DNA of 63,746 nt from a virus (taxonomy: Duplodnaviria > Caudoviricetes): positions 1-63,746 of IMG/VR virus record IMGVR_UViG_3300027985_000695; one strand, written 5' to 3'. Under the pieces are notes generated by a model that did no database searches, was not told the origin of the DNA, and worked only from the letters and a program-made list of their open reading frames with translations. Shown here in pieces: positions 7,529 to 57,333 of this stretch (positions are counted from its first letter, which is position 1; each line of letters opens with the position of its first letter). The translations under genes were made by a program, and so were the position numbers.

Positions 7529-7531
7529 CCT

Positions 7532-13000: not shown

Positions 13001-13309
13001 ATGGCAAAGACTCTTGAGGAAGCGTATAACGAAGCCGACGGCAAAGACGGCAAGATTGACAAGAAGCTGAAGAATCTCGGCTTTTGCGGGCGCCGCGCCG
13101 ACATCACAATCTTCAACGGCCCCGGAGAGAACGGCAAAGACGATGTGCAGTTGCAGATCGTCCCGCTCGCCATCAACGTGAAGCGCGAGCAGCGCGTGTC
13201 CGTCCCCGAGGAGTTCCTTGAAGTCCTCAACAATGCCCGCGAGATGGTGTATGACCCGAAGACCGGTATCGGCTCCGAAGTCATGCGCTTCCCGTATGTC
13301 AGGCATTAA
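13001..13309 (+). CDS. Hypothetical conserved-type phage protein
   Basis: 102 aa; ..VKRE..VSVPEEFLEVLNNA..RFPY pattern of the kind found after N4-like capsid genes. Confidence 0.7.
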   Translation: MAKTLEEAYNEADGKDGKIDKKLKNLGFCGRRADITIFNGPGENGKDDVQLQIVPLAINVKREQRVSVPEEFLEVLNNAREMVYDPKTGIGSEVMRFPYVRH

Positions 13310-13324
13310 ACACGGAGAACGTCA

Positions 13325-14008
13325 ATGACCCTGCTTGCATCGACGCTTACAGACTACGCAGCGCACATCCTGCATGACGACGACCACGACAGATTCTCTG
13401 TCGCGAGGTTGCTGTCGTACCTCAACGCTGCGCAGCGTCAGTTGATGAGCGTAAGGCCCGAGGCCAACGCGGTCTATTCAGTCCTTACGTTGCAGCAGGG
13501 TATATTGCAGCAGATACCGTCTGCGCTCAACCCGCTGAGACTGCTTACCATCACGCGCAACATGGGCGCAGACGGCGCTACCCCTGGCAAGGCTGCCGCT
13601 GCGACTGACCGAAGTTCTCTCGACTCGCTGCTTATCTCATGGGATACCGGGGAGACTGTCACGGAGATTGAAAGCTACGTCTATGACGAGCGCACTCCGG
13701 TTAACTTCTTCGTGTATAAGCCGCCCGATGGCGTCAACGTAGTGACCGTCGAGGCGCTGGTGTCGGTGATGCCTGACGACATTACCGATGTTTCAGAAAG
13801 CCTTGTCTTCCTCGACACGTATTTCAGCCCGCTCATTCACTGGATGCTATACTGCGCATACACGATGGAACTTGACGACTCGGCGTCATACAGCAAGGCG
13901 CTGCATCACTATCAGTGTTTCGCCCTTGAACTTGGGCAAGACCTGTCGGCTGCGACTCTTGTCAACCCGAACCTGTTTGAGTTCTACATGACTCGCAATA
14001 CGGGGTAG
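13325..14008 (+). CDS. Head-tail adaptor-like protein (DUF6682-like)
   Basis: L.D....RF....LL.YLN.AQRQL...RPEA N-terminal motif; position in the operon. Confidence 0.7.
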   Translation: MTLLASTLTDYAAHILHDDDHDRFSVARLLSYLNAAQRQLMSVRPEANAVYSVLTLQQGILQQIPSALNPLRLLTITRNMGADGATPGKAAAATDRSSLDSLLISWDTGETVTEIESYVYDERTPVNFFVYKPPDGVNVVTVEALVSVMPDDITDVSESLVFLDTYFSPLIHWMLYCAYTMELDDSASYSKALHHYQCFALELGQDLSAATLVNPNLFEFYMTRNTG

Positions 14009-18672: not shown

Positions 18673-19971
18673 ATGGCATTTGGATGGGATGACGCACTCG
18701 CCATAGGCACCACCGGCGCCGGACTTCTCGGCGGCATTTTCGGTGGAAGCAGCAGCGAAACATCACCTTCTGAGGCTGCGTACACCAACAACGCCCCGGT
18801 GATGAACCTGTCTATTCTGGACTACTTGAGCGGCAACAACATGTCGAACAAGTTCCAGACGTACCTTGACTCCCTCATGGGAGATTACGGCTCCGACAGG
18901 TCGCGCTGGAATCAGTACACAAGTCCTATCCTCGACCAGATGTTTGAGGAATACGACCAGATGTCACCGTACCGTGACGCCATGCTTGGGCAGGGAGCAC
19001 GCAGTTACGGCATCATGGCCGACATCCTTGAAGGCGCTAAACCTGCGTTCGACGCCGCATCCAACGATGTGCAGGATGCGTTCAGATACGCCCAGGATGT
19101 GTACCGCCCCGCCCAGGCCGAAAACATCAACTGGATGCAGACCACAGGGCGTGATGCCGTACAGAATGCCTTCGACTCCGCCCAGGAATACTACGGCGAT
19201 ACGAGGGACTACCTAGGCAAGACGCAGGACTATTACAACATGTCCTTCGACGTCGTTGACCCTGAACAGCAGGCAACGATGGCCGCAGCCGACATCGCCA
19301 ACGAGTACAACAAGAGCGTCGCCTCCATGCGCGAGCAAAACGCCGCTTACGGCCTCGACCCGTCCTCCGGCGCGTCTCAGGCGATGGAAACGCAGATGGC
19401 CGCAGATAAGGCGCTCTCCACCGCAGGAGCTCGCACCCGTGGCCGCACTGAAGGACAGCAGCAGCAGTTCGAGAATGTCGGAGCCGGGCTGAATGCGCTG
19501 CAAAGCGGCACGTCTGCCGTAGGCTCAGGCGCTTCAGCCGTGAACAACGCGGCGAGCGGCATGACGAACTTCGGCGGCGTCATGGGCAGCACGCTTTCCG
19601 CCGGCCCCGTGAATCAGGGCACAGGCATCGTGCAGTCGGCGGGCAACATGGGCAGCAACCTCGTAAGCGGCGTGTCGAACATGTTCAACAACCCGCTGAC
19701 CTCGAACATGGCCAGCACCGTCAACAACCTGCTTCTGAACCCGACTGCGCCGCAGTCGCTCGTAGGATACCTCGGCAAGTTCGGCGAGGACCGCATGGGC
19801 AACATTTACGATACATGGGGCGACTTCAACGACACGTACAACAGCATCTACAAGTCGAACAGCAGCAACCAAAGCGGCTCAGGGTCGGGAAGCTTGCTCG
19901 GTCAAGGCTTGTCGATGCTCGGAAAAAGCTTCGACAAGTGGGGAACGAGCACCTCCACCAAGAAGTCGTAG
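18673..19971 (+). CDS. Putative internal virion (ejection) protein
   Basis: Gly/Ala/Asn/Gln-rich helical protein with a YGLDPSSG motif; upstream of the other ejection genes. Confidence 0.65.
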   Translation: MAFGWDDALAIGTTGAGLLGGIFGGSSSETSPSEAAYTNNAPVMNLSILDYLSGNNMSNKFQTYLDSLMGDYGSDRSRWNQYTSPILDQMFEEYDQMSPYRDAMLGQGARSYGIMADILEGAKPAFDAASNDVQDAFRYAQDVYRPAQAENINWMQTTGRDAVQNAFDSAQEYYGDTRDYLGKTQDYYNMSFDVVDPEQQATMAAADIANEYNKSVASMREQNAAYGLDPSSGASQAMETQMAADKALSTAGARTRGRTEGQQQQFENVGAGLNALQSGTSAVGSGASAVNNAASGMTNFGGVMGSTLSAGPVNQGTGIVQSAGNMGSNLVSGVSNMFNNPLTSNMASTVNNLLLNPTAPQSLVGYLGKFGEDRMGNIYDTWGDFNDTYNSIYKSNSSNQSGSGSGSLLGQGLSMLGKSFDKWGTSTSTKKS

Positions 19972-19982
19972 GGGGTTAAGGA

Positions 19983-22310
19983 ATGCCCTTCAATCTCGAC
20001 AATTTCTTAGGCGGCGTAGGCACCGGGTATCTCAATCAGGAGAAGCTATACGACCAGCAGGCGCGCACCGACATCGCCGACAGGTCGATGACGCTTGAGG
20101 AAGAGGAAGCGCTTAGAAAAGAGCAGGAACTTGAGCGTCAGCTTGCGGAGCAAGCCCGCATCGCTTCCATTCTTTCTCCCGGCGTATATGGCCGGCAGGG
20201 CGCCACAGGGGCTGTTGGGGCGCAGGGACAGCCGTTGCGCGAGCACGACCTTCCCGTCAACTCGAACCTCACTGTGGGTGGCGTTGACCCGACGTCAGAA
20301 CTCGGCAAAGCCATCGCCTCGTACACGCAGAACGACCCCGGCCTCGGCGACTACCTGAGCGCTGTCGCTCAGGCAGAGAGCGGCGGCAACCTTAATGCGC
20401 GGTCTGACACGTCGAGCGCAAGCGGGCCGTTCCAGTTCATCAACGGAACAAAAGAAGGGCTGTTCGGAGACTACGGCGAGGAGATGAAGCGTCTCGGTCT
20501 TCCTTTCGACGTGACGAGTCCGCAGACCGCGGCGTACCTCGCTCGCAAGTACACGCTCGACAACGACGCGCAGTTCGCGAAGCTTAACGGCAGGGCTCCG
20601 ACAAACGGCGAGCGGTACATGAACGCCTTCCTCGGCGTCAACGGCTACAACCGCATGATGAAAGATGCGGAGCGGCTCGGGTGGGATGCGCCTGCGCATC
20701 TCATGGCCAGCGCCGAAGCCGTGGCCGCGAACAGCAGCGTCTTCTACGACAGCAAGGGAAACCCCCGCACCGCAAAGCAGGTGCGCGACCTAATGACCAA
20801 CAAGATCAGCCCGCAGGAAGCCGCGCGCGGCGTCGGGACCGGCAAGGAGTACCTGTACGAACCGCAGCGAGGCTACGGCGTCAGCGGCGTTCCGCAGATG
20901 AACATGGAACAGATCAACGCCATCATGGCCGACCCGAATATCGGGACAGAAACCAAGATGAAGTTCATGCAGGCGCTCAACACCAACGCCAGCACTGTGG
21001 AATCAGGTCGCAGCAATCTGGAAAGCGAGAACTACCGCTCGGCGAACATGGCGCAGGAGGATCAGCAGCATCGTGAGCGCATGGCCTTCAACTACGCGCA
21101 ACTGAACGAGCAAATCAGAAAGAACGACCTCGATGCGTCGTCTCCTGAAGAGATTCTCTCCAAGGCGATGATCCAGGGCGACAAGGTCGTGTACATGTCG
21201 AAAGACGGCAAGACGCACAACCTCGAAATTACGCCCGATGAATTCATCGCCACCCGCGATGCAGTCCTGCGCGGAAGCGGCAAAGGCGGGAAGAGCGGGT
21301 CCGGGTCAGGCTCCGGCGGCACAGGCGTTGCGGCATGGCAGTACGATCAGTTGAGCAAGGCGTTCTCTCCGTATGTTGCAAGGACCAGCAACATCAACGA
21401 GGACGACCTCGACAACACCGAACTCGGCAAGTCCGCCGCTCAGATGGCCCAGAACCAGCTTTCGGCTGTGGTGTCCGAAGTCACCAACGTCTTCAGGGAG
21501 AACGGCATGGAGCCGCAGCTTGACGAGCGCACGTTAAACGCGCTCGGCGATCAGGCCGGCAAGCGATATTCCGAACTGTACCCTGAAGTGAAAAAGAACA
21601 TCATCGCAAAGACGAAAGATGCAGGCATCGAAGTGCGGCCTGAAGAGGTCGAATTCCGCACGATGCAGGCGACGATGGGCATAGTCAAGAACGACATGCT
21701 GAAAAGCGGTATGGCTGCTGAGATTCTTTCAGGCGGGAAAGTCAAGATGCGCCCGAAGACAACGCCGCAGGATACCGCTGACAAGGCGTCACCTGCGTCC
21801 GGCGCTCAAGCTGGACCGTATACCGCCAGGCTCGCAGACCAGAAGAAGCGCGTTGAAGGCGATGCTTCCGGCGCTATGGCGCAGGTAGCTTCGGCCGGCG
21901 GCGTCGGAGCCACGCGCGGTCCAAACGCTCCGATTGCGCCCGCCGCTCCTTCACCTCAGAAGAAGGTCGTCCAGGGCGAGAACGGCGACGTTGTTGGCGG
22001 CATATACGGGAACTACGGCGGCGACAACGCCATCAAGCGAGGCGTTCGCTTCTACAGCGGCTACGACGGCGCGAAGTACATCACGGACTCCATCGGTGCA
22101 GGAATCAAGAAGGTCATGGACACGTTGAGTATGCCAGAGGCTACACAGATGTTCCTTATGAAAAAGTACCCGCAGCTTGAGCAGATTGTAACTGGCCTTC
22201 CCGACGAACAGAAGGTATACCTCTTGAAAGCGTTCCGTGACAGCAGCCCTGAGCAGATCGACGCGATGCTGCAAGAAATCATCAGAATTAACACGGACAG
22301 GGGGCGTTGA
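19983..22310 (+). CDS. Internal virion protein with lytic transglycosylase domain
   Basis: AVAQAESGGNLNARSDTSSASGPFQFINGT..YMNAFLG SLT-like catalytic motifs at about 20360-20660. Confidence 0.8.
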   Translation: MPFNLDNFLGGVGTGYLNQEKLYDQQARTDIADRSMTLEEEEALRKEQELERQLAEQARIASILSPGVYGRQGATGAVGAQGQPLREHDLPVNSNLTVGGVDPTSELGKAIASYTQNDPGLGDYLSAVAQAESGGNLNARSDTSSASGPFQFINGTKEGLFGDYGEEMKRLGLPFDVTSPQTAAYLARKYTLDNDAQFAKLNGRAPTNGERYMNAFLGVNGYNRMMKDAERLGWDAPAHLMASAEAVAANSSVFYDSKGNPRTAKQVRDLMTNKISPQEAARGVGTGKEYLYEPQRGYGVSGVPQMNMEQINAIMADPNIGTETKMKFMQALNTNASTVESGRSNLESENYRSANMAQEDQQHRERMAFNYAQLNEQIRKNDLDASSPEEILSKAMIQGDKVVYMSKDGKTHNLEITPDEFIATRDAVLRGSGKGGKSGSGSGSGGTGVAAWQYDQLSKAFSPYVARTSNINEDDLDNTELGKSAAQMAQNQLSAVVSEVTNVFRENGMEPQLDERTLNALGDQAGKRYSELYPEVKKNIIAKTKDAGIEVRPEEVEFRTMQATMGIVKNDMLKSGMAAEILSGGKVKMRPKTTPQDTADKASPASGAQAGPYTARLADQKKRVEGDASGAMAQVASAGGVGATRGPNAPIAPAAPSPQKKVVQGENGDVVGGIYGNYGGDNAIKRGVRFYSGYDGAKYITDSIGAGIKKVMDTLSMPEATQMFLMKKYPQLEQIVTGLPDEQKVYLLKAFRDSSPEQIDAMLQEIIRINTDRGR

Positions 22311-25300
22311 TGCCTTACGAACCGTATCAGGATGAAGATCCGAACATCCTCGACCAAGAGAGCGCGCAAGCCGCTCAGGCTGTTGACTCCAAGCTTGAGC
22401 GGCTTTCCGATGTCGGCAACGGCGACGATGAGATAGAATACGCGCTGAAGATGCTCAAGGGCAGCGCCCCGCCGCCAGAGACTTCAGGCGACTCCTATTT
22501 CGATGCGCTCGGCGTCTTCGGCCGCACTCTTAAAGACCTTCCCACGCACATCAAGGCGTCAGTCGCGCAGGGCTTTTACGACCCGGAGGACATGACGCTT
22601 GACCGCTCGTCCTGGCATGAAAAGGCCATGGACGAGAGCAATGCAGCGATGGAAGAGGCCCGTCGCTACTACGATCCTGTCCTCGGCAAGAACATCGTTC
22701 CCGGCATTACTGCGGGGGACATACTTGACACCGGCCCGTCTGTCGGATTCTCAACCGCGAGCATGGGCGCCTACGGCGTCGGAGCGCTTGCCGGCGGCGC
22801 CGTCGGCATGCCGACCGTTGGCGGCGGCGCAGCGTCTCTGTTCGCCACCAAGGAGATGGCCACCGGCCAGTTCAACGACATGCTCGGTCGTGCGCTCGCC
22901 GAATCTGCGAAAGCCGAAGGCAGGAACTACACGCAGGCCGACTTGCAGCAGGACGTCGCATACTTCCAGAGCGAGGCCGACAAGTACGGATGGTACGAAT
23001 CCGCCCTTGAAACCATCGGCAACATCGTCATGGGCAAGACGTTCGGCGCGGGGAAGGAAGCGTTCTCAGGTCTTCTCAACAAGGTTTTCGGGGAGAAGGT
23101 CGGCGGCTACCTCGGCAAGAACATCGTCACGCGAACCCTGTCGAAGCTTGGGATCAACACTGCGGAGGAACTCCCCTCCGAGACTGCGACGCAGATAGGA
23201 CAGGGAGGCGTCGAGGCTGACGTTGCCAACCAACTGAGAGGCATCGGACTTGAAATGCCGGGCTGGCGCACCGAAGCGCCGGGCGTGACGCAGGCTCTCG
23301 GCGAGGTCGCCGCCCCTGTGGCCGCTCAAACGCTCTTCACCGGCGGCCTGGCGGCAGGTACGCGAGGCGTCTACGACCTTGCAAAGAAGGGCATGGAAGT
23401 CTCCCGCCGCGCCGACGATGAACTCGCAACGCAAGCCGCGAACGAGGAAGCTGCGCGCACCATTCCTCCGAAGACCTCGCCCGTCGAGATGCCGCAACCC
23501 GAAGCCGCCCCTGTGGAACCACAGGGGGAGGGCTTCACGCCTGTTCGCGGCGCCCTTGATACAATGCAGATCGTGAGCGACCCTGAAGAGAACGCGCGGT
23601 ACATAGCTGCGATGAAGACGAATTTGAAGATCGCCGACGAGGAAGATATCAGCGACAGGGCCGAGAGGCTCTTTGCCGAGGGGAAGTCTCGCGCCGAGGT
23701 AATGACCGCGCTGAAGCAGGAACTTCAGGCCATCGAAGAGAAGCACGGCATCAAGCCTGCTTCAATCATTAACGCCGTCGTCAGGGACCGCAAGATTCCT
23801 GGCTTTGAGAGCGAGGGCAGGAAACAGTGGCTTGCCGACATGGCCGGGTACTACAAGTCTCAGGATGCCGCGAAGCCGAAGGTTGAGTTTGATGAGGATG
23901 GAGTCGAGGTTGCGCAGAAAGACCTCAACCATCCTTATGGCCACCTGCGCGGCATTCCTCGTCCGATGTCGAATTACCTCGGCAACAAGCGCAGCATGAT
24001 CCAGGCAGGCGCCTTCATCGGAGCCATTGCCGACAAGATCAAGCAGAGCAACATCGTTGACGTCTTCGCCGGTTCAAGCCTTCTGAGCCAGCTTGTCGGC
24101 AAGCAGAACCCGAACGCCAAGCGCGTCGTCAACGACCTCAACGCCGACGTGTTCAACTTCCATGATGTTGCCCGCAACAAGCCCGACGAGTTGATGTCTG
24201 AGGTGTCGAACAGCCTCAACAAGATTCGCTCAGTCATGTCGCGCTTCAACGAAGGAGGCAAGCTTGCGCATTCTGAGATTGCCGATCTTTGGAAGGAAAT
24301 CAAAACGCGCAGCGAGTTCGGCGATCCGGTTCAGAAAGCCGCTGCGATGGCTCTTGTGTCCGGCCAACTCGGTCAATTCGGCAAGGCAAAAGACACCGTT
24401 GACGCCGAGTCCGGCGTCCAGGGAAGTCAGCGCATCATCAAGGGCGAAGGCGCATCGAAGCCGTATGCCTGGACTGCATCTACAAAGAGCCTTGACAACT
24501 ACGAGGAGACGCTCAGGCAGTTCGTTGCCGATGCAAAGAACACTGAAGTAACGAACAAGGACGCCACCGAAGTATTGAACAATGCTACGGCTGACGGACT
24601 GTACCTTGTCGATCCTCCTTATGTTGCAGGTGAGGGGAAGGAAGGAGTCAACGACTATAAGGAAGGGAAGGAATTGACTTCCCTGGAAGGCGCCTTATCC
24701 TTTATAAATGGCCCCCTGAAAGCCGCCCATGAAAAGGGCGCGGGCTTGGTTTACACAAACAATTTTACCCCGGAACTTGCGACTGCATTGCGCGACCTCG
24801 GCTTTGCAGTCAGGAAGGTAAAGAATCTCAAGAGCCAGAACACCGGAAGCGAGGCAGGGAGCAGAGATGAAATCGTCGCCTACAACTCAGCAGCCGCAGG
24901 CAGGGATGTTGATGGACAGAATGCAGATGCTCGGCGAGGGGACAGTGCCACCGCAGGTGTTCGACAGCCTGACGCCGGAGGATCAGAGAACGTTCCTGAC
25001 GGAACCGGACCCGAAGATGTGGAGTCCAAGCCTGCAAGCAGCGATGCAGGAGTACCTGACGCTGGAACGCGACCCGGAGATGGAGGACGAGGAGCCGCAG
25101 CCGCAGGCATCGGAGAGCAGCATACCCTCCCCGGCGTAGAGACTGCTGAGAAGCAGGAAGAGTCTCCCGAGTCAAAGCCATCTCTTGCGGAGGCTTTGGA
25201 AGCGGCCAGCGACAAGCCCGCCAGAAGCCAGGAAGCGAAAAATCCGACCGAAGGTGCGCCGGAAGGGGAAAAACCCGCGACAGCGCCCCCTGTAGCCCCT

Positions 25301-28300
25301 GAGAGGGAAGCGGCCAAAAACGCCGCCGAACAGGGCGAAAAAACCACCATTTCCCCCGCCGAACTGGCCGACGCCATTGAGTCCGGGCTTGGCGACGCAT
25401 CGTTTGTGCCGTTCAGGGCCAACGAGCGCAGGCTCGCCGACGCCATCAGGAATGGCAAGACCGAATTCAACGTCAGCAAGAATCTCAGCCGCGTCATAGC
25501 TGACAGGCTCAATGCCGCAGTCGGCAAGGAAGAGAACGTATTCGGCGGCAAGGTGACGAAGATTGAGGGCGGGGCTGGTAAGCGCAAGTACGCAGTCTCC
25601 CGCAATCACGGCAGCATCGTCTTCAATGAAGCCACAGGCGCATTCACCCATGAAGCGACTGCGAAGGAAGAAGCACCCGACATTCTTTATTCCACCAAGG
25701 GGATGCGGCTGCGGCGAGATGACCGTCGTGAGACTCGCCAGACCGTTCGTGACATTGTAGGAAATAGTGCCTCTCGCACAATGGTCAATGAAGTTCTTCA
25801 AAACTCCATCGATGCGCTGCGTGAACGGTTCGGCGTTGACAGGTCGTCGTCACCTAAGAAGGGTGACATCAAAATCAAGGTAGTCAAGTTCTTTGGTGGC
25901 AATTATCACTTTGACGACGCCAAGATGAATGATGATGTCGAAAGATATGATTCGTCTATCATTCGCTTTGAGATTGAGGACAACGGCACCGGTATGACTG
26001 CCGATGACGTTCGCGAGAAGTTCCTCAAAATTTCTGGAGAGGGCAAGGATGCAACCTTGCTGTCAGGTGGCTACGGCAGGGCGAAGCTTGCGTTCCTGTT
26101 TATCCCGCATCACTGGCGTCTTGAGACCACGAAGAACGGCGTGACGACTTATGTCTCAGGCAACCGTGAACAGATGTACGACGGCCTTGAGCTTGATCAC
26201 TACTCCAAGAAGGAAGGGAAGGAACGCGGCACCAAGCTGACGTTGTACTGCTACGGCAACGGAAAATACGCCGAGAACGATCCCGTTGACCCTAACGCAG
26301 ACCTTCATGTTCCCGGCTACAACATCGACGCGATGGTGAAGTCGTATGTCAATTCGCTGGCGCTAAACGTGCCCGTGGAGTACCATGAGTCGAACTACTA
26401 CAACAACGATGAAGCTGCGGAGAACAATAACCTTGATGCTCCGGTAAAGTACCATGAAAAGCCTTCCATGCTGCAAGGCTCTGCCCTTGACGACAGAAAG
26501 CTTTTCATGGACCCGAAGCGCGACATTATGATTAACGGCTCTCGCGTAAATATTTTCTACGTCGAGAGGCCGGAACACGAAGTCAAGCACGCAAAGAAGT
26601 ACAACTACGCGCCGAAGTTCGCTTTCTCGTTCTACAACAAAGGAATCAAGCTGCATGAACTCAGCTTTGACATGCAGGCGCCTGACCACCCTCCGTTCGA
26701 CATACATGTCAACGTTGCGCGCACCCCCGATACCGAGGATGCAAAATATCCCTTCCGTGACAACAGGCGCAGGTTGCAGGGAGACTTCAGCGAGAAGCTG
26801 ACTGATATCATTCGGCGCGACGTGCAGTCATTCAATGAACGCATCATAAAAATGCACCGCGATCGTCTCAAGGACATGTACGATTCGTCTCCTGAGTTTG
26901 AAGGCGTGAAGGTTCTCATCCCGTATGAGAAAAAAGACGTCGAGAGCATCAAGGATGACATCAACAGGCATCGCTTCCTGTTTGAAGATATCGCGAAGCT
27001 GTTCAAGGCGTTTGAGACAACCATCAAGGACGCCGTTGGAGAAAAAGTCGTCGATGCGCTCAAGAAAGTTGGCGGGACTCAAGACAGCGAGTTCGACAAC
27101 GACTTTGAGTTCGACATTTCGTTGGATGAGAAGAGCCACGGATTCAGACTCGGCAAGGCAGTCGCTGGTCGTCCTGTTTATGCGTTGAACCCGTTCGCCA
27201 TCACAAAGCAGTTGATGGAAGGCAACGGAATCTACAAGGCGCTCATAGACGTAGAGGATGCAATCGAGCGTGACGCCGTTATGAAGAGCCTGATGGCGAA
27301 CAACCTCGTCAACACCTTCATCCATGAATACGCTCACAACTTCGTGCAGTCTCACTACGAGTCATTCTCAAGCGTAGAGGACTTGCTGCATGCCCAGATA
27401 GGGTATGGAACCATAGCCGAACTGGCCGATCAGGCTTACCAGCTGTTCGACACGCATCAGGAGGCCATTGATGAAATCACGTCCAAAAAGCGAACAAGAC
27501 AAGAGACAGACCTTAAACTCATGCGCAACAACTCTCTTGTTCAGTCCAAGGAACTCGCTGGACGAGAAGATTCTGGACTATCACGCGAAGGACAAGGAGA
27601 AGGCGCGGCAGAAGATTCACGAGAACGGCGGGATGGAGTCGATGAAGGACGCGGTGATCGCGGAAGCGATGAACCGCAAGGCCCGCCTGAGTTCAAGCGC
27701 GACGTAAAGAATCAGCGCGATGCGATCAATAAAAAGACCGCCGGCATCTTCAAGACGAAGGCGATTCCTCGCGTCAAAGACTTCCTCTCCACCGTCCTGA
27801 ACCCGCAGACTGTCGAGGAGCGGCGCTTTGTGAAGGCAGGCGACCAGATGGCCACGATCTACACCGACAGGTCGTTCGGCCCCTTGCGCCGCGCCATCGC
27901 CCTGCCTTCCGCTGTGGCCCGAAAGTTCCCCGACCTCTTCAAGCCGCTGATGGACATTCAGGCGTTCCGCGAAGATACGCACCAGGAATACATCACGGAT
28001 GCGTTCAAAAACCTTGAGCAGATGATGAACCTGAAAGGCCAGGACGCCGACAGGCTCGTGAACGTCATCCACGACCTCGATGGAAATTTTGACGCATACA
28101 AGGAGTTCGGCGTCAAGTGGTTCAAAGAGGCCGGCGACGGAACGATGGAGGCCAACGACGAGTTCTACGAGAAGCTTCCAGACTTCCTGCGTGAGAGGTA
28201 TCCGAAGATGTCGGACGCTTCCATCAACTCGTTCGTGGCCATCCAGCAGGAACTTACCAAGACCTTCATTACCGTCCACAACAACGCGCATCAGGTCGGC

Positions 28301-30502
28301 GGCGAGGCGACGCATGCCTCCCTGAAAGACTACCGCAACGCGATGGGGAAGCTGCCTTTCTACTTCCCGCACAAGCGATACGGCTCGCACTACCTGAAGG
28401 CGACGAATGACAAGGGCGAAACGATCTATCGTGAGCACTTCGACAAGCGCAGCCTGGAAGTTCTCGGTAAGGGCATCGACCAGTTCGTGAAGGACCGCAT
28501 CAAGGCGATCCCGAGCGAGCTCTTGAAGCAGCCCCAGTTCGCGGACACCGACCTCTCAGGAGCGCACTGGGAAGTCCGAAAGGTAAAGAAGCTGCCTGAA
28601 GCCGTGTTCGACACGCCGATACCTGAGCGCGCCATTCAGCAGGTCATCACGCATGGCCTTGACAAGTTCGACGATGAAACGAAAGAGCGACATCGCGAGA
28701 TGCTCATGCAGGCTTTCTCCGACGTGTTCAAACAGCGCGGAGCCGGATCGTCGTTCATCAAGAGACAGAACATCCCCGGATACGAGCGCACGGACGTTCG
28801 CCGCGTGGTCTACGACCATGTTTCCGGCATGTACGGCTACATCACCAAGGCCGACGCCGCCAGGCGCATGACTGCCCACATGTGGAACATTCACGGCGCC
28901 GAAGACCCGGAGCTCTACGAGTACAGCGAGCGGTACGTCAAGGACATGCTTCAGAACGCCGACGTGCATGACAAGCTTGTCTCATGGTGGAAGTCCCTCG
29001 GGTTCGTCGTCTACCTTGGCGCCCGCGTTTCCACCGCCGCGGTGAACCTGACGCAGAACATCATCACAGGCATCCCGGCCCTCGGCATGTACGTCAAATA
29101 CTCGGAGAAGAGCTATTTCGACGCGCTGAAGGACATCACGACGCTTGTCAGGTACTCGCTCACCGGCAAGGCCGAAGGATACCGCAAGGAGTCCGGGCTT
29201 ACCCGCGACGAGTGGACGATGATCCAGAAGCTTTACGCTCAGGGCGACTTGCAGGATCAGTATTTCCGCAGCTTCCAGGCTGAGATGCAGGGCAAGGTGT
29301 CGAGGGCGTGGCACAAGGCCGTCACCTTCATGGGCATACCGATGACCGTGACCGAACGCTTCAACCGCGCATCGTTGGCGCTGGCCGCGTACCGCTCGGC
29401 CAAGAAGGGACACATCACCGACTCGGCCTGGACTACGAAGGTCGGGACCGGGGCATCGTTCAACGAGGATCAGGCCATTGAGTTCTGCAAGATGATAGTG
29501 AACAAAGCGCACTTCATCTACCGCAAGGGCAATGTCCCGCAAGCGATGCGCGGCACGACCGGCGGCAAGTATCTCTCGACCGCATACCAGTTCAGGCGCT
29601 TCACCCACAACATGCTCTCCCTGTGGACTGAGATGTTGCAGAGCGGGCCACGGGGGAGGATTGCGCTGATGAAGTCTCTGGCGGGCCTTATGAGCGTCGG
29701 CGGCCTCGCGTCCATGCCTCTCTATGCGACGTTTATGAATGCCGCGTTCGCCGCAACCGGCGACGACTGGGAGGAGAAACTCAGGAAGATGATGCCGAAG
29801 GATGCCGACGCGATGCGCGACATGCTCATCTACGGGCTTCCGTCGCTTGCCGGCGTGAACCTCTCAGGCTCGATGGCCATCGACCTTCCGTATGTGAGCG
29901 ACACGATGCCGAAGGGCGCTGGCGAAACGTCTGCGCTGGAAATCCTCGGCATCCCGTATGCGTTCCTCGTCGAGCAGCCGCAGAAATTCAACCGCAGCAT
30001 GGAGGCAGGCGAGTATTACCGCGCCTTCACCGAAGACTTCCCGTTCATGCCGATGGCCGCGAGGCAGGTCTTCTCGGCGATTAGGCTCGGGACTGAAGGC
30101 AGTTACACGCGCAGCGGTCGAGAGGTCAGGGCGCCGGGCGAACGCGGCCCCATGAAGCTTGGATTCATGGCCGCGCTCGGCAAGTCACTCGGATTCCAGC
30201 CGACGAGCATGTCCAACGCCTTCAAGGCCAGCGTCAGCGTGCAGAAGTCGAAGGAATTCCTTGATGGCTTCAAGCGCAACCTCGCCGACGAGTATACGAA
30301 TGCGCAGCGGCGCGGAGACAAGGAGGCGATGCTCGACATTCGCCGCCAGGTCAGGGAGTGGAACAAAGAGGCGCGCAGTGAGAAGAAGCCGTATTACGTC
30401 ATCGACCTTTCGGATTCGCTGAGGGCAAGACGCAGGCCGGTGGGAGGCGCGGGCAAGAAATTCCGCAGTCGCGAGAAAGAAGCGCAGGACGCCTACATGT
30501 AA
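22310..30502 (+). CDS. Giant polyvalent virion protein (DarB-like position): DNA adenine methyltransferase + GHKL ATPase + HExxH + PLxRFG-like C-terminus
   Basis: YLGNK/DVFAGS/NDLN/DPPY (about 23960-24880); NEVLQNSIDA, EDNGTGM, GGYGRAK (about 25780-26100); IHEYAH (27320-27337); YFPHKRYG (about 28361). Confidence 0.85.
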   Translation: MPYEPYQDEDPNILDQESAQAAQAVDSKLERLSDVGNGDDEIEYALKMLKGSAPPPETSGDSYFDALGVFGRTLKDLPTHIKASVAQGFYDPEDMTLDRSSWHEKAMDESNAAMEEARRYYDPVLGKNIVPGITAGDILDTGPSVGFSTASMGAYGVGALAGGAVGMPTVGGGAASLFATKEMATGQFNDMLGRALAESAKAEGRNYTQADLQQDVAYFQSEADKYGWYESALETIGNIVMGKTFGAGKEAFSGLLNKVFGEKVGGYLGKNIVTRTLSKLGINTAEELPSETATQIGQGGVEADVANQLRGIGLEMPGWRTEAPGVTQALGEVAAPVAAQTLFTGGLAAGTRGVYDLAKKGMEVSRRADDELATQAANEEAARTIPPKTSPVEMPQPEAAPVEPQGEGFTPVRGALDTMQIVSDPEENARYIAAMKTNLKIADEEDISDRAERLFAEGKSRAEVMTALKQELQAIEEKHGIKPASIINAVVRDRKIPGFESEGRKQWLADMAGYYKSQDAAKPKVEFDEDGVEVAQKDLNHPYGHLRGIPRPMSNYLGNKRSMIQAGAFIGAIADKIKQSNIVDVFAGSSLLSQLVGKQNPNAKRVVNDLNADVFNFHDVARNKPDELMSEVSNSLNKIRSVMSRFNEGGKLAHSEIADLWKEIKTRSEFGDPVQKAAAMALVSGQLGQFGKAKDTVDAESGVQGSQRIIKGEGASKPYAWTASTKSLDNYEETLRQFVADAKNTEVTNKDATEVLNNATADGLYLVDPPYVAGEGKEGVNDYKEGKELTSLEGALSFINGPLKAAHEKGAGLVYTNNFTPELATALRDLGFAVRKVKNLKSQNTGSEAGSRDEIVAYNSAAAGRDVDGQNADARRGDSATAGVRQPDAGGSENVPDGTGPEDVESKPASSDAGVPDAGTRPGDGGRGAAAAGIGEQHTLPGVETAEKQEESPESKPSLAEALEAASDKPARSQEAKNPTEGAPEGEKPATAPPVAPEREAAKNAAEQGEKTTISPAELADAIESGLGDASFVPFRANERRLADAIRNGKTEFNVSKNLSRVIADRLNAAVGKEENVFGGKVTKIEGGAGKRKYAVSRNHGSIVFNEATGAFTHEATAKEEAPDILYSTKGMRLRRDDRRETRQTVRDIVGNSASRTMVNEVLQNSIDALRERFGVDRSSSPKKGDIKIKVVKFFGGNYHFDDAKMNDDVERYDSSIIRFEIEDNGTGMTADDVREKFLKISGEGKDATLLSGGYGRAKLAFLFIPHHWRLETTKNGVTTYVSGNREQMYDGLELDHYSKKEGKERGTKLTLYCYGNGKYAENDPVDPNADLHVPGYNIDAMVKSYVNSLALNVPVEYHESNYYNNDEAAENNNLDAPVKYHEKPSMLQGSALDDRKLFMDPKRDIMINGSRVNIFYVERPEHEVKHAKKYNYAPKFAFSFYNKGIKLHELSFDMQAPDHPPFDIHVNVARTPDTEDAKYPFRDNRRRLQGDFSEKLTDIIRRDVQSFNERIIKMHRDRLKDMYDSSPEFEGVKVLIPYEKKDVESIKDDINRHRFLFEDIAKLFKAFETTIKDAVGEKVVDALKKVGGTQDSEFDNDFEFDISLDEKSHGFRLGKAVAGRPVYALNPFAITKQLMEGNGIYKALIDVEDAIERDAVMKSLMANNLVNTFIHEYAHNFVQSHYESFSSVEDLLHAQIGYGTIAELADQAYQLFDTHQEAIDEITSKKRTRQETDLKLMRNNSLVQSKELAGREDSGLSREGQGEGAAEDSRERRDGVDEGRGDRGSDEPQGPPEFKRDVKNQRDAINKKTAGIFKTKAIPRVKDFLSTVLNPQTVEERRFVKAGDQMATIYTDRSFGPLRRAIALPSAVARKFPDLFKPLMDIQAFREDTHQEYITDAFKNLEQMMNLKGQDADRLVNVIHDLDGNFDAYKEFGVKWFKEAGDGTMEANDEFYEKLPDFLRERYPKMSDASINSFVAIQQELTKTFITVHNNAHQVGGEATHASLKDYRNAMGKLPFYFPHKRYGSHYLKATNDKGETIYREHFDKRSLEVLGKGIDQFVKDRIKAIPSELLKQPQFADTDLSGAHWEVRKVKKLPEAVFDTPIPERAIQQVITHGLDKFDDETKERHREMLMQAFSDVFKQRGAGSSFIKRQNIPGYERTDVRRVVYDHVSGMYGYITKADAARRMTAHMWNIHGAEDPELYEYSERYVKDMLQNADVHDKLVSWWKSLGFVVYLGARVSTAAVNLTQNIITGIPALGMYVKYSEKSYFDALKDITTLVRYSLTGKAEGYRKESGLTRDEWTMIQKLYAQGDLQDQYFRSFQAEMQGKVSRAWHKAVTFMGIPMTVTERFNRASLALAAYRSAKKGHITDSAWTTKVGTGASFNEDQAIEFCKMIVNKAHFIYRKGNVPQAMRGTTGGKYLSTAYQFRRFTHNMLSLWTEMLQSGPRGRIALMKSLAGLMSVGGLASMPLYATFMNAAFAATGDDWEEKLRKMMPKDADAMRDMLIYGLPSLAGVNLSGSMAIDLPYVSDTMPKGAGETSALEILGIPYAFLVEQPQKFNRSMEAGEYYRAFTEDFPFMPMAARQVFSAIRLGTEGSYTRSGREVRAPGERGPMKLGFMAALGKSLGFQPTSMSNAFKASVSVQKSKEFLDGFKRNLADEYTNAQRRGDKEAMLDIRRQVREWNKEARSEKKPYYVIDLSDSLRARRRPVGGAGKKFRSREKEAQDAYM
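24867..25139 (+). CDS. Candidate overprinted small gene nested in the +1 frame of the giant gene
   Basis: GGAG RBS upstream; G/C-ending codon bias moves into this frame while the host frame becomes low-complexity. Confidence 0.55.
   Translation: MKSSPTTQQPQAGMLMDRMQMLGEGTVPPQVFDSLTPEDQRTFLTEPDPKMWSPSLQAAMQEYLTLERDPEMEDEEPQPQASESSIPSPA
27471..27707 (+). CDS. Second candidate overprinted small gene in the +1 frame of the giant gene
   Basis: AGGAGG 6 nt before ATG 27471; GC3 bias in this frame over its 3' half. Confidence 0.5.
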   Translation: MKSRPKSEQDKRQTLNSCATTLLFSPRNSLDEKILDYHAKDKEKARQKIHENGGMESMKDAVIAEAMNRKARLSSSAT

Positions 30503-30504
30503 AC

Positions 30505-30541
30505 AAAAAGGCGCTGAAGCTTGTTGCTTCAGCGCCTTTTC
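30505..30541. terminator. Bidirectional intrinsic terminator between convergent blocks
   Basis: AAAAAGGCGCTGAAGC-TTGTT-GCTTCAGCGCCTTTT. Confidence 0.85.
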
Positions 30542-30554
30542 TGCAAGATGCCTC

Positions 30555-30791
30555 TCAGCAGCCGAACACGCCGTCCTTGTCGAAAAACGCCGTGATGAGT
30601 AGATACCCATCGGCGCAATCCTGAATTACAGCCACGACGCCGTTATGGATGGCTTTGAACCTGAATATTCCATCCTTGTACTTCCCGTCAGTGTACCACA
30701 GGCCGTTGTGTAGCGACTTCCTGACGCTGCCCATGGAGATGTTGCGCCTCTCCATCGCCTTCCTCGCGTGGTCTGAGACTATGAGCTTCAT
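30555..30791 (-). CDS. DUF4258-like small protein
   Basis: MKLIVSDHARKAMERRNIS...LLITAF pattern. Confidence 0.65.
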   Translation of the reverse strand: MKLIVSDHARKAMERRNISMGSVRKSLHNGLWYTDGKYKDGIFRFKAIHNGVVAVIQDCADGYLLITAFFDKDGVFGC

Positions 30792-31171
30792 TTGACGCAA
30801 GCCCCCTCTATCTCGCCGTCGCTCTTGAAGCACCTGTATCCTGGGGCGCAGTCAACGTCGAACGAGCACGTATCGCCGTATGGACGATCATACGGCGAAG
30901 ACGGGTACGCATCGTTGTCGTTGCCGGGCCATATGCCTCCGACGCATGCGCCACCAAGGCCGTCAATCTGCAAACACTCGCTGCCGATGGCGCAGTCCGC
31001 GTCTGTTACGCACCCCTCCGCATCATCGACAGACGAGGCAACCACCAGGCACGCCAAGGCAGCAATGAATATGGCAATCTTCAACACCCTGTTGTTGTCG
31101 TCGATGTCTATTTCAAACTTATACATCGCGACGACTATTGCGCTGAGTATAGCGATTGTGAACAGTATCAT
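30788..31171 (-). CDS. Membrane-anchored Cys-rich protein
   Basis: Two hydrophobic segments, then two C-x2-D-x-DC-x2-G-x2-C...G.C repeats. Confidence 0.7.
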   Translation of the reverse strand: MILFTIAILSAIVVAMYKFEIDIDDNNRVLKIAIFIAALACLVVASSVDDAEGCVTDADCAIGSECLQIDGLGGACVGGIWPGNDNDAYPSSPYDRPYGDTCSFDVDCAPGYRCFKSDGEIEGACVK

Positions 31172-33187: not shown

Positions 33188-33687
33188 GCAGTCAACACCT
33201 CAATGAATGCTTCCCCTGTGGCTCCGCCGCTGTCCATGTGCTCTCGCTCGGAGAGGTCCGGGTCGTAGTCCTCATACAGTTTGATGAGGCCTAGCAGCGC
33301 GTCGTTCCACAGGATGAGGCGGCGCTGGTTGTTCGCAGGAAGCTGGTCAACGAGGTCGGAGACTACGAGAATGACCGCCGACAGGAAGTCTCTCGCGTCG
33401 ATGTGATCCCCGTACCGCGTTTGTATGATGCGCTTGAGCATCATTAGCGGGCGCTGGTAGGCGATGGTTTCCTTGACGTCGAGGACGAACCTGCCATGAC
33501 CGTCCGTTCTTCCGTAGGCGTATTTAGCCGCCTCGGACGCGCTTGAGTCGATGACGACAAGCATGTTTTCGATGTCTTTCGGGATGTCCATCTTCGCCTC
33601 TTCATACGCCCCGCGACATGCGTCTACGGCGCCGCGAACAAGGTCGGCGGTAAGCAGTTGCCGCCGCTGCGATCTCGACATTTTCAT
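33184..33687 (-). CDS. Hypothetical protein
   Basis: 167-aa ORF with typical codon usage. Confidence 0.7.
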   Translation of the reverse strand: MKMSRSQRRQLLTADLVRGAVDACRGAYEEAKMDIPKDIENMLVVIDSSASEAAKYAYGRTDGHGRFVLDVKETIAYQRPLMMLKRIIQTRYGDHIDARDFLSAVILVVSDLVDQLPANNQRRLILWNDALLGLIKLYEDYDPDLSEREHMDSGGATGEAFIEVLTA

Positions 33688-35509: not shown

Positions 35510-35764
35510 TTAAAAGTCAACAGGTTGCGCGTTCTTACCGCCCGCTTGGGTCAGGCGTACCTCGTCCTTGCTCCATGAGCACAGGTCGCCCTCCCTGTGA
35601 TTGCGGTGATGGATGTTCCAAGCAACAGCGCATGTCTGCGGCCATAGGCACTTGCCGTCGCGACACTGTGTACACCATTCCTTGCAGAAGTCGGCAAGAT
35701 GCTTTCGCATGTACACGACGCTATGGTGCATCTTCCCAAGCTCGCGACGAACTGTCTTACTCAA
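35510..35764 (-). CDS. Small Cys-rich hypothetical protein (start uncertain)
   Basis: Fills the gap after the 35757 stop; several Cys pairs. Confidence 0.5.
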   Translation of the reverse strand: MSKTVRRELGKMHHSVVYMRKHLADFCKEWCTQCRDGKCLWPQTCAVAWNIHHRNHREGDLCSWSKDEVRLTQAGGKNAQPVDF

Positions 35765-36293
35765 CGGTCGCGGGCGAGGCATCGGCGTATGCATCCTCGA
35801 TGTATGCCATGATGTCGGCGTAGTAGCCGTTAACCTGCATGTCGGTAAACCCTCGACGCTCAAGCTCCATCGTGGCGGCCCTGTTTGTAAGATCGTCATC
35901 GTCAAACAGCGCAAGCCTTATAAGTTGCGCGTTCGTGACGTTGCTAAAGGTGCTCTCAAGGAACTTCTCGTTGTTCTCGCATCTTGCGTATGTCGGCCTG
36001 TCATCGCTGCCGAGGCCATGCTTCTGGTAGGCAAGCAGGAACATCATGTTGCACATGGCGTGTGCAAGATGGTTCAGGCCGCTCTCAGGGTCAATGTCCT
36101 CGCCAAAGAGCCACGACTCCATGTGCCTCTTGGCGGCGTCGTAGCAGCGCGTCCAGTCCATGCCGCCGGTCCAGTTGTAGTCGCCGTACTTGTCCGCGCC
36201 CATCATCAACACGCGCACCAACTCGTCGATGGCTTCCTTGTCGAGAAGGTGGTGTTTCAGCTTTCCGTAGTCGAACTTGTTCGCATCAGACAT
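35757..36293 (-). CDS. dATP/dGTP diphosphohydrolase-domain protein (DUF5664-like)
   Basis: KFDYGK..LL....GADKYGDYNW..G..W...YDAA.RH...W..GEDIDPESGLNHLAHAMCN. Confidence 0.88.
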   Translation of the reverse strand: MSDANKFDYGKLKHHLLDKEAIDELVRVLMMGADKYGDYNWTGGMDWTRCYDAAKRHMESWLFGEDIDPESGLNHLAHAMCNMMFLLAYQKHGLGSDDRPTYARCENNEKFLESTFSNVTNAQLIRLALFDDDDLTNRAATMELERRGFTDMQVNGYYADIMAYIEDAYADASPATVE

Positions 36294-36304
36294 GTTGCTC
36301 TCCT

Positions 36305-36784
36305 TTATTCTTCTGCAATGTTTGTCGTGCGCCACGATGCGCGCCCGTGGTTCTTGTCCCTGCAATCCGTAAATCCGACAGCCCATGCTTTGCGCAACTC
36401 GGAGTCGTCGGTTAATCCTGCATACGGATTGTCGGTGTACAGGTCTTCGCCGGCCTGGCATGCCGTGCGTCCTTCATCAACGGCATCGGAAATCATCTTT
36501 TCGCGCACTCTCAAAATCTCGGCGCGAATGCAACGTTCGATGACGCACAGGTTGTTCGTGTTTATGTCGGCGTGGTTGTTGAAGTCGATGATGATGAAGT
36601 CGCCGCACACGGTGCTCTCTGTCCCGTCCACCGATATTTCGCCGTGAGACGCCACCATTTCCATGAGCATACGAGAAAGCGCGATGGAGTTGATGTCGTG
36701 GACATTGACGTTGATCTCTCCGAGTTCAACCTCGAATGCCATCTTGACGTTGCTGCGGTGTATTTTGAAGCGATCCCCTTCCAT
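36305..36784 (-). CDS. Hypothetical protein with an Rmf-like C-terminal motif
   Basis: EGR.A......NPY.......KAWAVGF. Confidence 0.6.
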   Translation of the reverse strand: MEGDRFKIHRSNVKMAFEVELGEINVNVHDINSIALSRMLMEMVASHGEISVDGTESTVCGDFIIIDFNNHADINTNNLCVIERCIRAEILRVREKMISDAVDEGRTACQAGEDLYTDNPYAGLTDDSELRKAWAVGFTDCRDKNHGRASWRTTNIAEE

Positions 36785-36785
36785 C

Positions 36786-37241
36786 CTATTCACCCCCTCC
36801 GTGATTCTTGCAGGTTATCTCGACTCCGCAAGGCGCCGGGGCGGGGATGTTCATCTCCTTGCGAACTTCCTGCGCAAGCGGCGCCTCCGCCCTGATGACG
36901 CCCTCAATCCCACACTCCGAGCATTTGAAGTAGACGCCGCCCTCTTCAACGAGGCGCTTGTGCTCCATGACCTCTTGCTCGCATGCCTCGCACAGCCCGC
37001 CGGGAAGGCGCTCGTTGTCCTCGATGCGATCCACCTTGCCGCCGCGCAGATTGGTCTTGCACTTCCCGCAGTTCTCTGACGGCCGTGAGCCAAAGTTGAC
37101 CGTGCCGCAGGACGGGCACGTGATCTTGTTCTTCCTGTTGCCGATGAGCATCAACTCGCGTCCATCGCCTCCGCAGCGCGGGCAATATGTGAGATGCGGG
37201 TTGACGCCGAGTTTCGGGTCAAGAGTAATGCTGCCGCTCAT
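36786..37241 (-). CDS. Zn-finger protein
   Basis: GVNPHLTYCPRCG and several CxxC pairs; RBS AGGGGG. Confidence 0.75.
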   Translation of the reverse strand: MSGSITLDPKLGVNPHLTYCPRCGGDGRELMLIGNRKNKITCPSCGTVNFGSRPSENCGKCKTNLRGGKVDRIEDNERLPGGLCEACEQEVMEHKRLVEEGGVYFKCSECGIEGVIRAEAPLAQEVRKEMNIPAPAPCGVEITCKNHGGGE

Positions 37242-37256
37242 GGTATCCCCCTGTGG

Positions 37257-37859
37257 TTACTGGTTTGCCGCTTCCATCGCGGCGAAAGGATCAATCGAAG
37301 AAGCCTGAGCATCCGGCGGCAGCATCCTGCCAAGTTCGGCGACAGACTTCTTGAACGCATCGCGTGTCTTCCTGGCGCTGACAGCTGCACGCTTCGCAAG
37401 GGCGGCGTTGTCGCCGCGCTTCTCAAGCTGCCGCGTATACTTTCTGCGGTTTGAGCAGAAATGAGAGCAGTACCGCTGCGTCGGAGTCCTCTTGACGAAC
37501 GGATCGCCGCACACCAAGCACTCGGCGTCAGGTTCTTTCTGCTTTGCGACCTTGTTGCGGTATGCGATTGCGCAGGTGCAGCAGCAGAAGAATTGCGTCT
37601 TGCCCTTGACCTGATTCGTATAGCGCTCAAACTGCTTTCCGCAGTTTCCGCAGACGAGGCTCGTCATGGACCTCGGCTTGCGACCCTCTCCGCTTGCCTC
37701 GCGCTTCTTGGCCGTTCGCTTCATCAGCTTGATTGCGCATGCCGGCGAGCACGTCTTCTTTTTCTTCTGACGGTAGTTCGCGTAGAACTCCGCCCCACAT
37801 ATCTCGCAGATTCTCGTTTCAGTCTTGAGCACGCGCCCTCCTTTCCCTGGCCGACACAT
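37257..37859 (-). CDS. Repeated Zn-ribbon (CxxCG..F...CS..C) DNA-binding-like protein
   Basis: Three CxxC...C-x3-C units. Confidence 0.7.
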   Translation of the reverse strand: MCRPGKGGRVLKTETRICEICGAEFYANYRQKKKKTCSPACAIKLMKRTAKKREASGEGRKPRSMTSLVCGNCGKQFERYTNQVKGKTQFFCCCTCAIAYRNKVAKQKEPDAECLVCGDPFVKRTPTQRYCSHFCSNRRKYTRQLEKRGDNAALAKRAAVSARKTRDAFKKSVAELGRMLPPDAQASSIDPFAAMEAANQ

Positions 37860-43524: not shown

Positions 43525-43585
43525 CGATACCACAGGGGGAGGACGGCCTCCCCCTCAACCTTCAACACATTGAACGAGGATTACA

Positions 43586-57194: not shown

Positions 57195-57333
57195 CCATGT
57201 ACATCACGATTGACGTATGGATGCCGTGTGCCCAAGCGACGCATGCGGCGTCAACTCAATATGAAAGCAACGCCGTGATACCGCGCGCCAAGGGGGTGCG
57301 TATGGGTAACAGGTAGGAGCAAACAAAGTCGCT

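Follow-up and report, generated by a model that had tools for sequence, protein, structure and literature searches.

Does the gene for a giant phage virion protein hold a second, smaller gene in another frame, and if so, which of the two frames is the older? The question arises in IMG/VR virus record IMGVR_UViG_3300027985_000695 (Duplodnaviria; Caudoviricetes), a complete virus (63,746 bp, bounded by direct terminal repeats), the whole of which is referred to here as the window. Its gene for a 2730-residue virion protein encloses a 90-codon open reading frame (ORF) at 24867-25139, shifted by +1 relative to the giant frame and situated beside a Dam-like methyltransferase module. Judging from the sequence evidence set out below, we consider it probable (roughly 0.7) that this ORF is a functional, independently translated nested gene, one that already existed when the giant gene came to read through it. 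The original prediction for this locus had proposed a coding frame nested after the methyltransferase, and in this it is borne out by profile homology and by the codon phase of the +1 frame. It had also described the ORF as an overprinted small gene, and this relation now appears to be the reverse, with the small gene as the older frame.

The nested ORF and its protein family

The evidence that carries this reading is homology. When the stop-to-stop peptide of the +1 frame was compared with 1.84 billion representative proteins by phmmer, seven matches were obtained (E 1.7e-5 to 1e-3), six of which are proteins of 60-141 aa; the seventh, a repeat protein, was set aside. The nested ORF and the six proteins share the core R..M.GEG.IP...F..L......FLTEPDP.KWPP...L..YL, and in this first alignment R18, P28, E46, P47, D48, P49 and P54 are invariant, as is M1, the column that matches the ATG at 24867. 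In two further alignments the near-invariant columns of the family are all kept by the nested ORF, its identity to any member being 22-38%. A profile search enlarged the family to 74 clusters, with lengths of 37-171 aa and most often 66 aa, whose named members are hypothetical proteins from Desulfobacteraceae, Deltaproteobacteria or Thermodesulfobacteriota metagenome-assembled genomes (MAGs). Neither Pfam nor NCBIfam has a match for this family, to which we refer by its FLTEPDPxKWPP motif. With the phage ORF left out, a profile of 37 members still finds the +1 frame, with E 6.6e-16 and 54.8 bits over profile positions 7-76, and the next best among 1170 six-frame pieces of the window has E 3.5. 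The nested ORF also falls within the family's range of lengths and, like its members, has its own N-terminus some dozen residues ahead of the core. On these alignments we regard the nested ORF as a full-length member of the unnamed FLTEPDPxKWPP small-protein family.

In bacteria the family gene stands by itself. It occupies its own intergenic slot in 17 of the 18 loci inspected (13 from genomes and five from metagenomes; L012 is ambiguous), and neither a nested arrangement nor an in-frame fusion to a larger protein was found in these 18 loci. The phage copy departs from this pattern in that it lies wholly inside the giant ORF, with no free-standing slot. All 17 free-standing copies carry between one and seven stops in the frame that corresponds to that of the giant gene. 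The family is present in 13 of 401 sampled Desulfobacterota genomes, and its subfamilies retain lineage-specific neighbours. For instance, a form of 135-146 aa adjoins ATP sulfurylase (L007, L008), a 64-aa form is divergent from an M42 peptidase gene with BFN nuclease and LOG-like genes near (L009, L011, L013, L014, L021, L022), and a 66-aa form adjoins a trpD-like glycosyltransferase-3 gene (L002, L020). At one locus of a Thermodesulfobacteriota MAG (L010), a Dam methylase gene with a Pfam D12 domain (6926-7747) is followed 188 nt downstream by the gene for a 145-aa family member (7935-8372), a gene order that matches the phage order and is the sole such case among 31 loci.

Start site and codon phase

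The nested ORF begins six codons before the end of the methyltransferase module (residue 860, nt 24886). It had been predicted to span 24855-25139 and to follow the end of the module; the stop is as predicted and the ORF does adjoin the module, while the start is misplaced, the ATG being at 24867 and position 24855 taking in the Shine-Dalgarno (SD)-like GGGAG ahead of it. The peptide quoted in support, MDRMQMLGEG..., does belong to the ORF, from residue 16 onward. Other genes of this phage have GGAG, AGGAG or GGGGG as SD sites, at a spacing similar to that of the nested gene. The +1 frame is open from 24822, the nearest upstream +1 stop being 24819-24821. Across the giant gene there are 83 out-of-frame ATGs, 11 of them with an SD-like tetramer, and the longest ORFs from these 11 start at 24867 (90 codons) and 27471 (78 codons), followed by one of 52 codons. 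As in arrangements of the Rz/Rz1 type, the nested ORF lies wholly within another ORF and has its own SD and start.

Codon-position composition points to the same frame. The mean GC content of the first, second and third codon positions (GC1, GC2 and GC3) of the giant gene is 0.59, 0.41 and 0.72; at 24827-25186 these values become 0.74-0.79, 0.62 and 0.46, and the normal phase pattern falls to the +1 frame. A per-frame comparison of GC3, suggested beforehand as a check, came out as expected of a nested gene, with 0.80 in the +1 frame and 0.46 in the giant frame. The nested ORF resembles the phage in this value, and 17 bacterial homologues have 0.45-0.69. When trained on the codons of 24 other phage genes (8514 in all), a codon model favours the +1 frame from about 24857 to 25156; its scores at the nested ORF are -3.65 to -4.0 in the +1 frame and -4.0 to -4.3 in the giant frame, real genes scoring about -3.8 to -4.0. 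When 31 genes (14,202 codons) were scanned for maximal segments favouring an alternative frame, the two top segments, 24888-25106 (31.9 nats) and 27552-27689 (30.9 nats), both proved to be +1 segments of the giant gene, and the third best reached 15.4 nats in a doubtful gene. A 344-codon ORF at 35613-36647 (+) gathers many such segments (15.4, 13.4, 10.4 nats and more) and may be a wrong gene call, the true genes lying in other frames or on the opposite strand.

The openness of the nested frame is in itself unremarkable, because the stretch is T-poor (12% T, with four of six frames open for at least 105 codons) and 18% of the 91-codon windows of the phage's real genes (1579/8568) are equally open in the corresponding offset. 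Furthermore, GC3 of the +1 frame is GC1 of the giant frame, and a Gly/Ala/Asp-rich linker could therefore imitate the signal to some extent. The low-complexity linkers of the giant gene at 25140-25370 and 23400-23560 were taken as controls; both have the normal phase, with the giant frame favoured. The log-ratio of amino-acid composition per residue at the nested ORF is 0.01 for the giant frame and 0.24 for the +1 frame, as compared to 0.29 +/- 0.09 for real in-frame windows, -0.31 +/- 0.12 for out-of-frame windows, and 0.23 and 0.11 for the two control linkers. In composition and in its A/T-ending codons, the giant frame across these 84 codons resembles an out-of-frame read.

We also note an imperfect direct repeat that flanks the ORF, at 24834-24852 and 25220-25238 (16/19 nt, spacing 386 nt). 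It may have been left by an insertion, or may be a coincidental resemblance in purine-rich DNA.

Which frame is older

The genealogy of overlapping genes can be judged by phylogenetic distribution and by codon usage, the criteria of Keese and Gibbs and of Pavesi as given in the portion of PMC8227390 available to us. A frame overprinted de novo would be expected to have the narrower distribution, and the nested frame has 74 homologous clusters; nor does its codon usage mark it as the newcomer, since it lies nearer to that of the genome than does the giant frame. The enclosing linker had no homologues, and the middle part of the giant protein no relatives, in the searches made. Close relatives of the middle part of the gene were not found among viral contigs, GenBank phages (blastn) or metagenome contigs, the giant protein matched only itself among entries of 1502-4780 aa in the protein collection, and the methyltransferase module as a query found no close relative in 30 related phage records. 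Because it has both the wider distribution of homologues and the better codon usage, we take the small ORF to be the ancestral frame, and the 84-residue G/A/D/R linker of the giant protein to be the derived one.

Predicted structure and docking on the methyltransferase

Given the 76-row family alignment, AlphaFold2 predicts a compact four-helix domain at residues 11-67 of the nested protein (block pLDDT 75-90, mean 70.3). Titles of the Xre/HipB helix-turn-helix type make up 16 of the top 50 rows of a wide structure search with VIA; at Z 2.3-3.0 these are too weak and were not used.

The original prediction had suggested that the small protein might inhibit or chaperone the adjacent enzyme, to be examined by structure co-prediction with the methyltransferase. 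Three co-folds of the small protein with residues 545-862 of the giant protein gave ipSAE interface scores of 0.46, 0.77 and 0.76 (median 0.76), and three of three controls gave 0.00. The mark applied to such co-folds is reached by 58 of 80 solved complexes and by 2 of 110 mismatched pairs; here at least 21% of contacts recur between runs, and the partner pLDDT is at least 59. The predicted contacts lie between motif I (585) and DPPY (769) of the module. In alpha-class adenine methylases the target-recognition domain sits between these two motifs. Binding of the small protein to the methyltransferase module is, on this model, a tentative proposal to which we give slightly less than even odds, and an acidic binder (pI 4.05) on the recognition-domain surface could mask DNA binding. 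The suggested partnership is sustained in part: docking is predicted (0.76 vs 0.00), but the bacterial gene neighbourhoods, considered below, do not repeat the pairing.

If the nested gene is functional, a late virion-module mRNA would be translated in two ways. Ribosomes starting at 22310 would produce the 2730-residue polyvalent protein, in which the nested stretch would form an open, flexible spacer between the methyltransferase and the next module, and internal starts at GGGAG-N5-ATG would produce a 10-kDa acidic four-helix protein. Docking is proposed because the small protein would be made from the same message, beside the methyltransferase module. It might settle on the recognition-domain region as a cognate partner, masking the enzyme or holding it until or after packaging, a step for which one co-fold is the whole basis. 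With regard to origin, a cellular-type gene, or a cassette of methyltransferase and small gene, may have been captured at the domain boundary, and its toleration there would be owed to the chance absence of stops from the giant frame over its length.

Other nested +1 ORFs

The giant gene has a second +1 ORF, at 27471-27707, with a codon signature like that of the first (30.9 nats). Its 3' half is well coded and helical-looking, and AlphaFold2 run on the single sequence predicts two long helices (pLDDT 77.5, pTM 0.31), a result that is not decisive. No homologues were found in five genomes, small proteins, the ESM Atlas, phages or 30 related phage records, and three per-genome matches among 401 genomes (E 8.5e-4 to 9e-3) are at noise level. 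With no homologue from any of these searches, it is a possible orphan among nested genes. All that the two nested starts have in common is the 9-nt GATGAAATC (24866-24874 and 27470-27478), which is read D-E-I in the giant frame and M-K-S in the +1 frame; beyond it the flanking sequences show no relation, and the sharing is probably a coincidence.

A codon-phase scan was made of five capsid relatives with 57-66% capsid identity (G414, G423, G427, G418 and G404). Strong +1 segments lie inside the giant genes of G414, G423 and G427, and none was seen in the giant genes of G418 or the 37%-GC G404; overall the scan finds nested +1 segments in four of the six genomes examined. One embedded gene, here called X (94-98 aa, MIPPLQ...LPTSAL...), occurs in 5 of 31 related phage records. 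It is always within an open giant frame, which is rich in R/G/D/A there, and it retains its ATG and an SD-like site; in G427 it lies beside an N6-methylase. Over 94 ungapped codon columns, variable sites number 34, 30 and 48 at the three X codon positions, and the third position of the giant frame is therefore the least variable. Between G414 and G427 amino-acid identity is 62% in the +1 frame and 47% in the giant frame, and substitutions that leave X alone unaltered fall at 26 of 58.3 sites, those that leave the giant frame alone unaltered at 16 of 75. The substitution pattern of X favours the +1 frame over the giant frame. A further +1 ORF, Y, overlaps the C-terminal end of an LPD37 domain in G423 and G427; identity between the two phages is 70% in either frame, there is no clear SD, and from the equal conservation Y may be truly dual-coding. 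The giant protein of G427 is a typical polyvalent protein and contains InPase, FtsK-gamma, C5- and N6-methylase, SNF2, LPD37 and ART-PolyVal domains. X and Y belong to families other than that of 24867-25139; they support the arrangement and not the function of the latter.

These cases invite a wider speculation, which we consider unlikely in its full form: that polyvalent genes of this podovirus clade routinely house +1 genes at domain boundaries, each encoding the cognate partner of the neighbouring effector domain, be it an inhibitor, an immunity-like protein or a chaperone. Giant ORFs would then grow, and swap effector-partner cassettes, by read-through, the out-of-frame read becoming an interdomain linker. 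The present phage would have two such cassettes, the Dam-like methylase with the 90-aa protein and the zincin-like module with the 78-aa protein, and those of the relatives would be X beside the N6-methylase and Y at the end of LPD37.

Weighing the alternatives

Several points weigh against a functional nested gene. The family was found in none of 30 related phage records (the capsid relatives), nor in GenBank phages by tblastn. The searches gave no close relative against which synonymous sites, or the ratio of nonsynonymous to synonymous substitutions (dN/dS), of the nested ORF could be compared, and among the sequencing runs on record none of RNA contains this part of the uncultured phage. 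For a natural protein the ORF is rich in methionine (8.9%). Structural comparison of the nested protein returned nothing at E <= 0.001 from the Protein Data Bank (PDB) with Foldseek, and the wide VIA search gave a best Z of 3.8 with no functional lead. With respect to docking, one co-fold run of three reached only 0.46, the methyltransferase chain was co-folded without an alignment, and a Dam-like gene is a neighbour at 1 of 31 family loci (three of which are duplicates), so that the link to a methyltransferase is not general.

The strongest competitor, which we hold to be unlikely, is that the small gene is a passenger or fossil, recently inserted at the domain boundary from a host of like composition, surviving only through the lack of stops in the giant frame, untranslated and with no role in the phage. 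Such an event would suit a family member that is unique to this phage, as the absences just listed indicate, together with the failure to find the family in IMG/VR viral contigs by motif scans from two alignments. It would also suit the imperfect repeat; a stop-free passage is not rare, at 18% of real-gene windows, and a host donor would supply matching codon usage without long residence. A fossil, however, would not be expected to run complete from an SD and an ATG at the homologous N-terminus to its own stop, nor to keep every near-invariant family residue despite 22-38% identity. The second linker shows a like arrangement, the +1 genes embedded in the relatives are conserved with selection favouring that frame, and the co-fold passed its controls, all of which argue for the functional gene.

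The remaining alternatives are much less probable. The original prediction had allowed for an alternative C-terminus, in which a +1 shift near 24860-24915 would join the N-terminus and methyltransferase of the giant protein to a small-protein tail ending at the TAG at 25139. We think this very improbable. The +1 frame is indeed open from upstream of the methyltransferase end, with GGGAG just upstream of the shift, and in prfB an SD-like element stimulates a +1 shift; yet the family members are independent proteins that start at the M1 aligned to the ATG at 24867, the embedded genes of the relatives keep their own ATG and SD, and 24822-24918, read by eye, lacks homopolymers of at least four bases, in-frame stops and any known +1 motif, +1 signals being varied. 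The related idea of a ghost C-terminal tail, in which old gene ends are fused by single frameshifts, was dropped, the homologues being whole stand-alone proteins with their own start. Even less credible is an assembly artefact, either a chimeric join or paired indels that shifted a true in-frame segment. The record is metagenome-assembled, and both runs holding it may be its source, but a second assembler, probably using the same reads, gave an identical sequence over 22000-30800 (8.8 kb; 0 differences, 0 gaps) in one 59,278-nt contig at an even depth of 20.4, without indels or joints. Moreover, a chimera would not keep a frame of 2730 codons, and the family is never fused in frame to larger proteins at the inspected loci. 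Least probable of all, to the point of being negligible, is a chance ORF, opened by a T-poor, purine-rich linker whose G/A/D/E codons mimic GC3 in the +1 frame. The low T content, the four open frames and the identity of +1 GC3 with giant-frame GC1 (itself set by amino-acid composition) are what such an ORF would look like. It is refuted because a profile made without the phage ORF matches the +1 frame, and it sits poorly with the normal phase of the two control linkers and with a family that is not spurious, its inspected copies, from among the 74 clusters, lying in intergenic slots of their own.

The giant gene and its modules

The left half of the genome encodes the portal, the major head protein, an internal virion protein and a transglycosylase protein. 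The enclosing gene follows these, and the copy of its product in the protein collection is likewise 2730 aa. Within the methyltransferase module, TIGR00571 'dam' matches at E 2.3e-8 (34 bits, under its cut-off of 114.85) and Pfam has no match; the motif order is that of the alpha class, and BLASTP aligns the module with the Pfam-confirmed D12 methylase of the Thermodesulfobacteriota locus L010 at E 1e-8. Further along, a HATPase_c_3 (GHKL ATPase) domain occupies aa 1159-1287 and a zincin-like HEYAH motif lies at aa 1673 (nt 27323-27337). By tblastn the giant protein has a match in its C-terminal part only, at 22-25% identity, to giant virion proteins annotated 'DarB-like antirestriction' or 'DNA methylase', and the phages that share this C-terminus are Erwinia phages PEp14 and Pavtok, Pseudomonas phages Itty13 and Skulduggery, and some Vibrio phages. 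For the last ~500 aa the identity to the 'DarB-like antirestriction' proteins of the Erwinia and Pseudomonas phages is 24%. The single virion-module ORF contains several unrelated enzymatic domains (the Dam-like module, HATPase_c_3 and HExxH), and the product is a polyvalent virion protein in the sense given in the available part of Iyer et al. 2017 (PMC5512222). Of the signature LPD/MPTase Pfam domains there was none at E <= 0.1 in the giant protein, except for a weak match to WLM, a zincin, at E 0.052. In GC3 the gene is a mosaic: values of 0.70-0.82 over the N-terminal part drop to 0.53-0.65 through the methylase and the beginning of the GHKL region, and the C-terminal third has 0.80-0.88. 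These differences suggest modules of different origin.

Table 1. Coordinates of the features discussed, in the window unless a related phage is named.
Feature	Coordinates	Strand	Remarks
Giant virion polyvalent protein gene	22310..30502	+	2730 aa from ATG 22310; TTG 22307 is an in-frame alternative; encloses the nested ORF
Dam-like (D12-type motif order) N6-adenine methyltransferase module	23975..24886	+	aa 557-860: YLGNKR, DVFAGSS, DPPY, ...IVAYN
Predicted contact region of the methyltransferase module	24224..24505	+	aa 640-733; interface 640-663, 683-687, 717-733 (co-fold)
SD-like GGGAG	24857..24861	+	5 nt before nested ATG 24867
Nested small gene (putative)	24867..25139	+	+1 frame of giant ORF; 90 aa, 10.1 kDa, pI 4.05; TAG 25137-25139
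Giant-frame linker over the nested ORF	24887..25139	+	84 residues; G 20%, A 18%, D 12%; A/T-ending codons
AGGAGG	27459..27464	+	6 nt before second nested ATG 27471
Second +1 ORF	27471..27707	+	78 aa, pI 9.6; under second G/R/E/D linker, just after HEYAH
X in G427	13292-13585		L138
X in G423	66071-66364		L139
X in G432	37133-37414		L140
X in G413	33367-33660		L141
X in G414	56907-57200		L142
Y in G423	1246-1662		L130; +1 frame, 139 aa, ends FQTGCYNE
Y in G427	19226-19642		L134; +1 frame, 139 aa, ends FQTGCYNE

Significance and comparison with known systems

Nested genes are usually viewed as young inventions laid over an old gene; here the inner gene would be old and the stretch of the giant protein across it new. 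Multi-enzyme polyvalent phage proteins could in this simple way be assembled across genes that lie between their modules. Nested ORFs are dropped by gene callers, so that small phage proteins that possibly control injected enzymes are systematically missed; indeed, in a collection of 5.8 billion proteins the nested copy of this phage is absent and its giant protein is present. As the scan is positive in four of six genomes, the idea of nested genes can be tested at scale.

Among the closest known arrangements is that of the Rz/Rz1 embedded spanin genes of tailed phages, where Rz contains the whole of Rz1 in its +1 frame; Erwinia phage PEp14, a distant relative, has such a pair in its annotation (43240-43809 and 43457-43759). 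In both cases a small gene on the same strand sits inside a larger one in another frame, with its own start, and the products are thought to cooperate. Rz1, unlike the nested gene described here, has no life outside the overlap, and Rz and Rz1 form one functional unit; here the inner gene is of a free-standing cellular family, and the outer frame is a mere linker in a 2730-aa multi-enzyme protein.

In polymorphic toxin systems, a gene for a cognate small binder, the immunity protein, follows directly after the effector domain. The present case is possibly similar in that a small predicted binder is encoded right after its enzyme domain and kept linked to it. It differs in that a methyltransferase is no toxin and that the binder gene lies inside the effector's own ORF and not past its stop. 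A cassette analogy is drawn by Iyer et al. in the part of their 2017 paper available to us (PMC5512222). The giant protein is of a kind with the polyvalent proteins of that account and the DarB-like virion proteins of P1, its own chain combining a Dam-like methylase with a GHKL ATPase and a zincin-like motif, and the giant genes of its relatives are of the polyvalent type, with InPase, LPD37, ART-PolyVal, SNF2 and methylase domains. The available text of PMC5512222 has no instance of 'overlapping', 'frameshift' or 'linker', and one each of 'embedded' and 'reading frame', in other senses; in the full-text literature, supplements lying outside the scope, we did not find genes nested in polyvalent protein genes described.

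A precedent for the order of events proposed here is found in hepadnaviruses, for which Pavesi describes, in the available portion of PMC8227390, a 'modular evolution' whereby the spacer of the polymerase was laid over a pre-existing short surface gene. In that case, as in ours, a short older gene would lie between modules, the spacer would be the newer element, and the genealogy is read from codon usage in sliding windows. The two settings differ: the hepadnaviruses are animal reverse-transcribing viruses under extreme compaction, whereas the arrangement at 24867-25139 occurs in a 64-kb double-stranded DNA phage with ample space, and its inner gene has cellular homologues.

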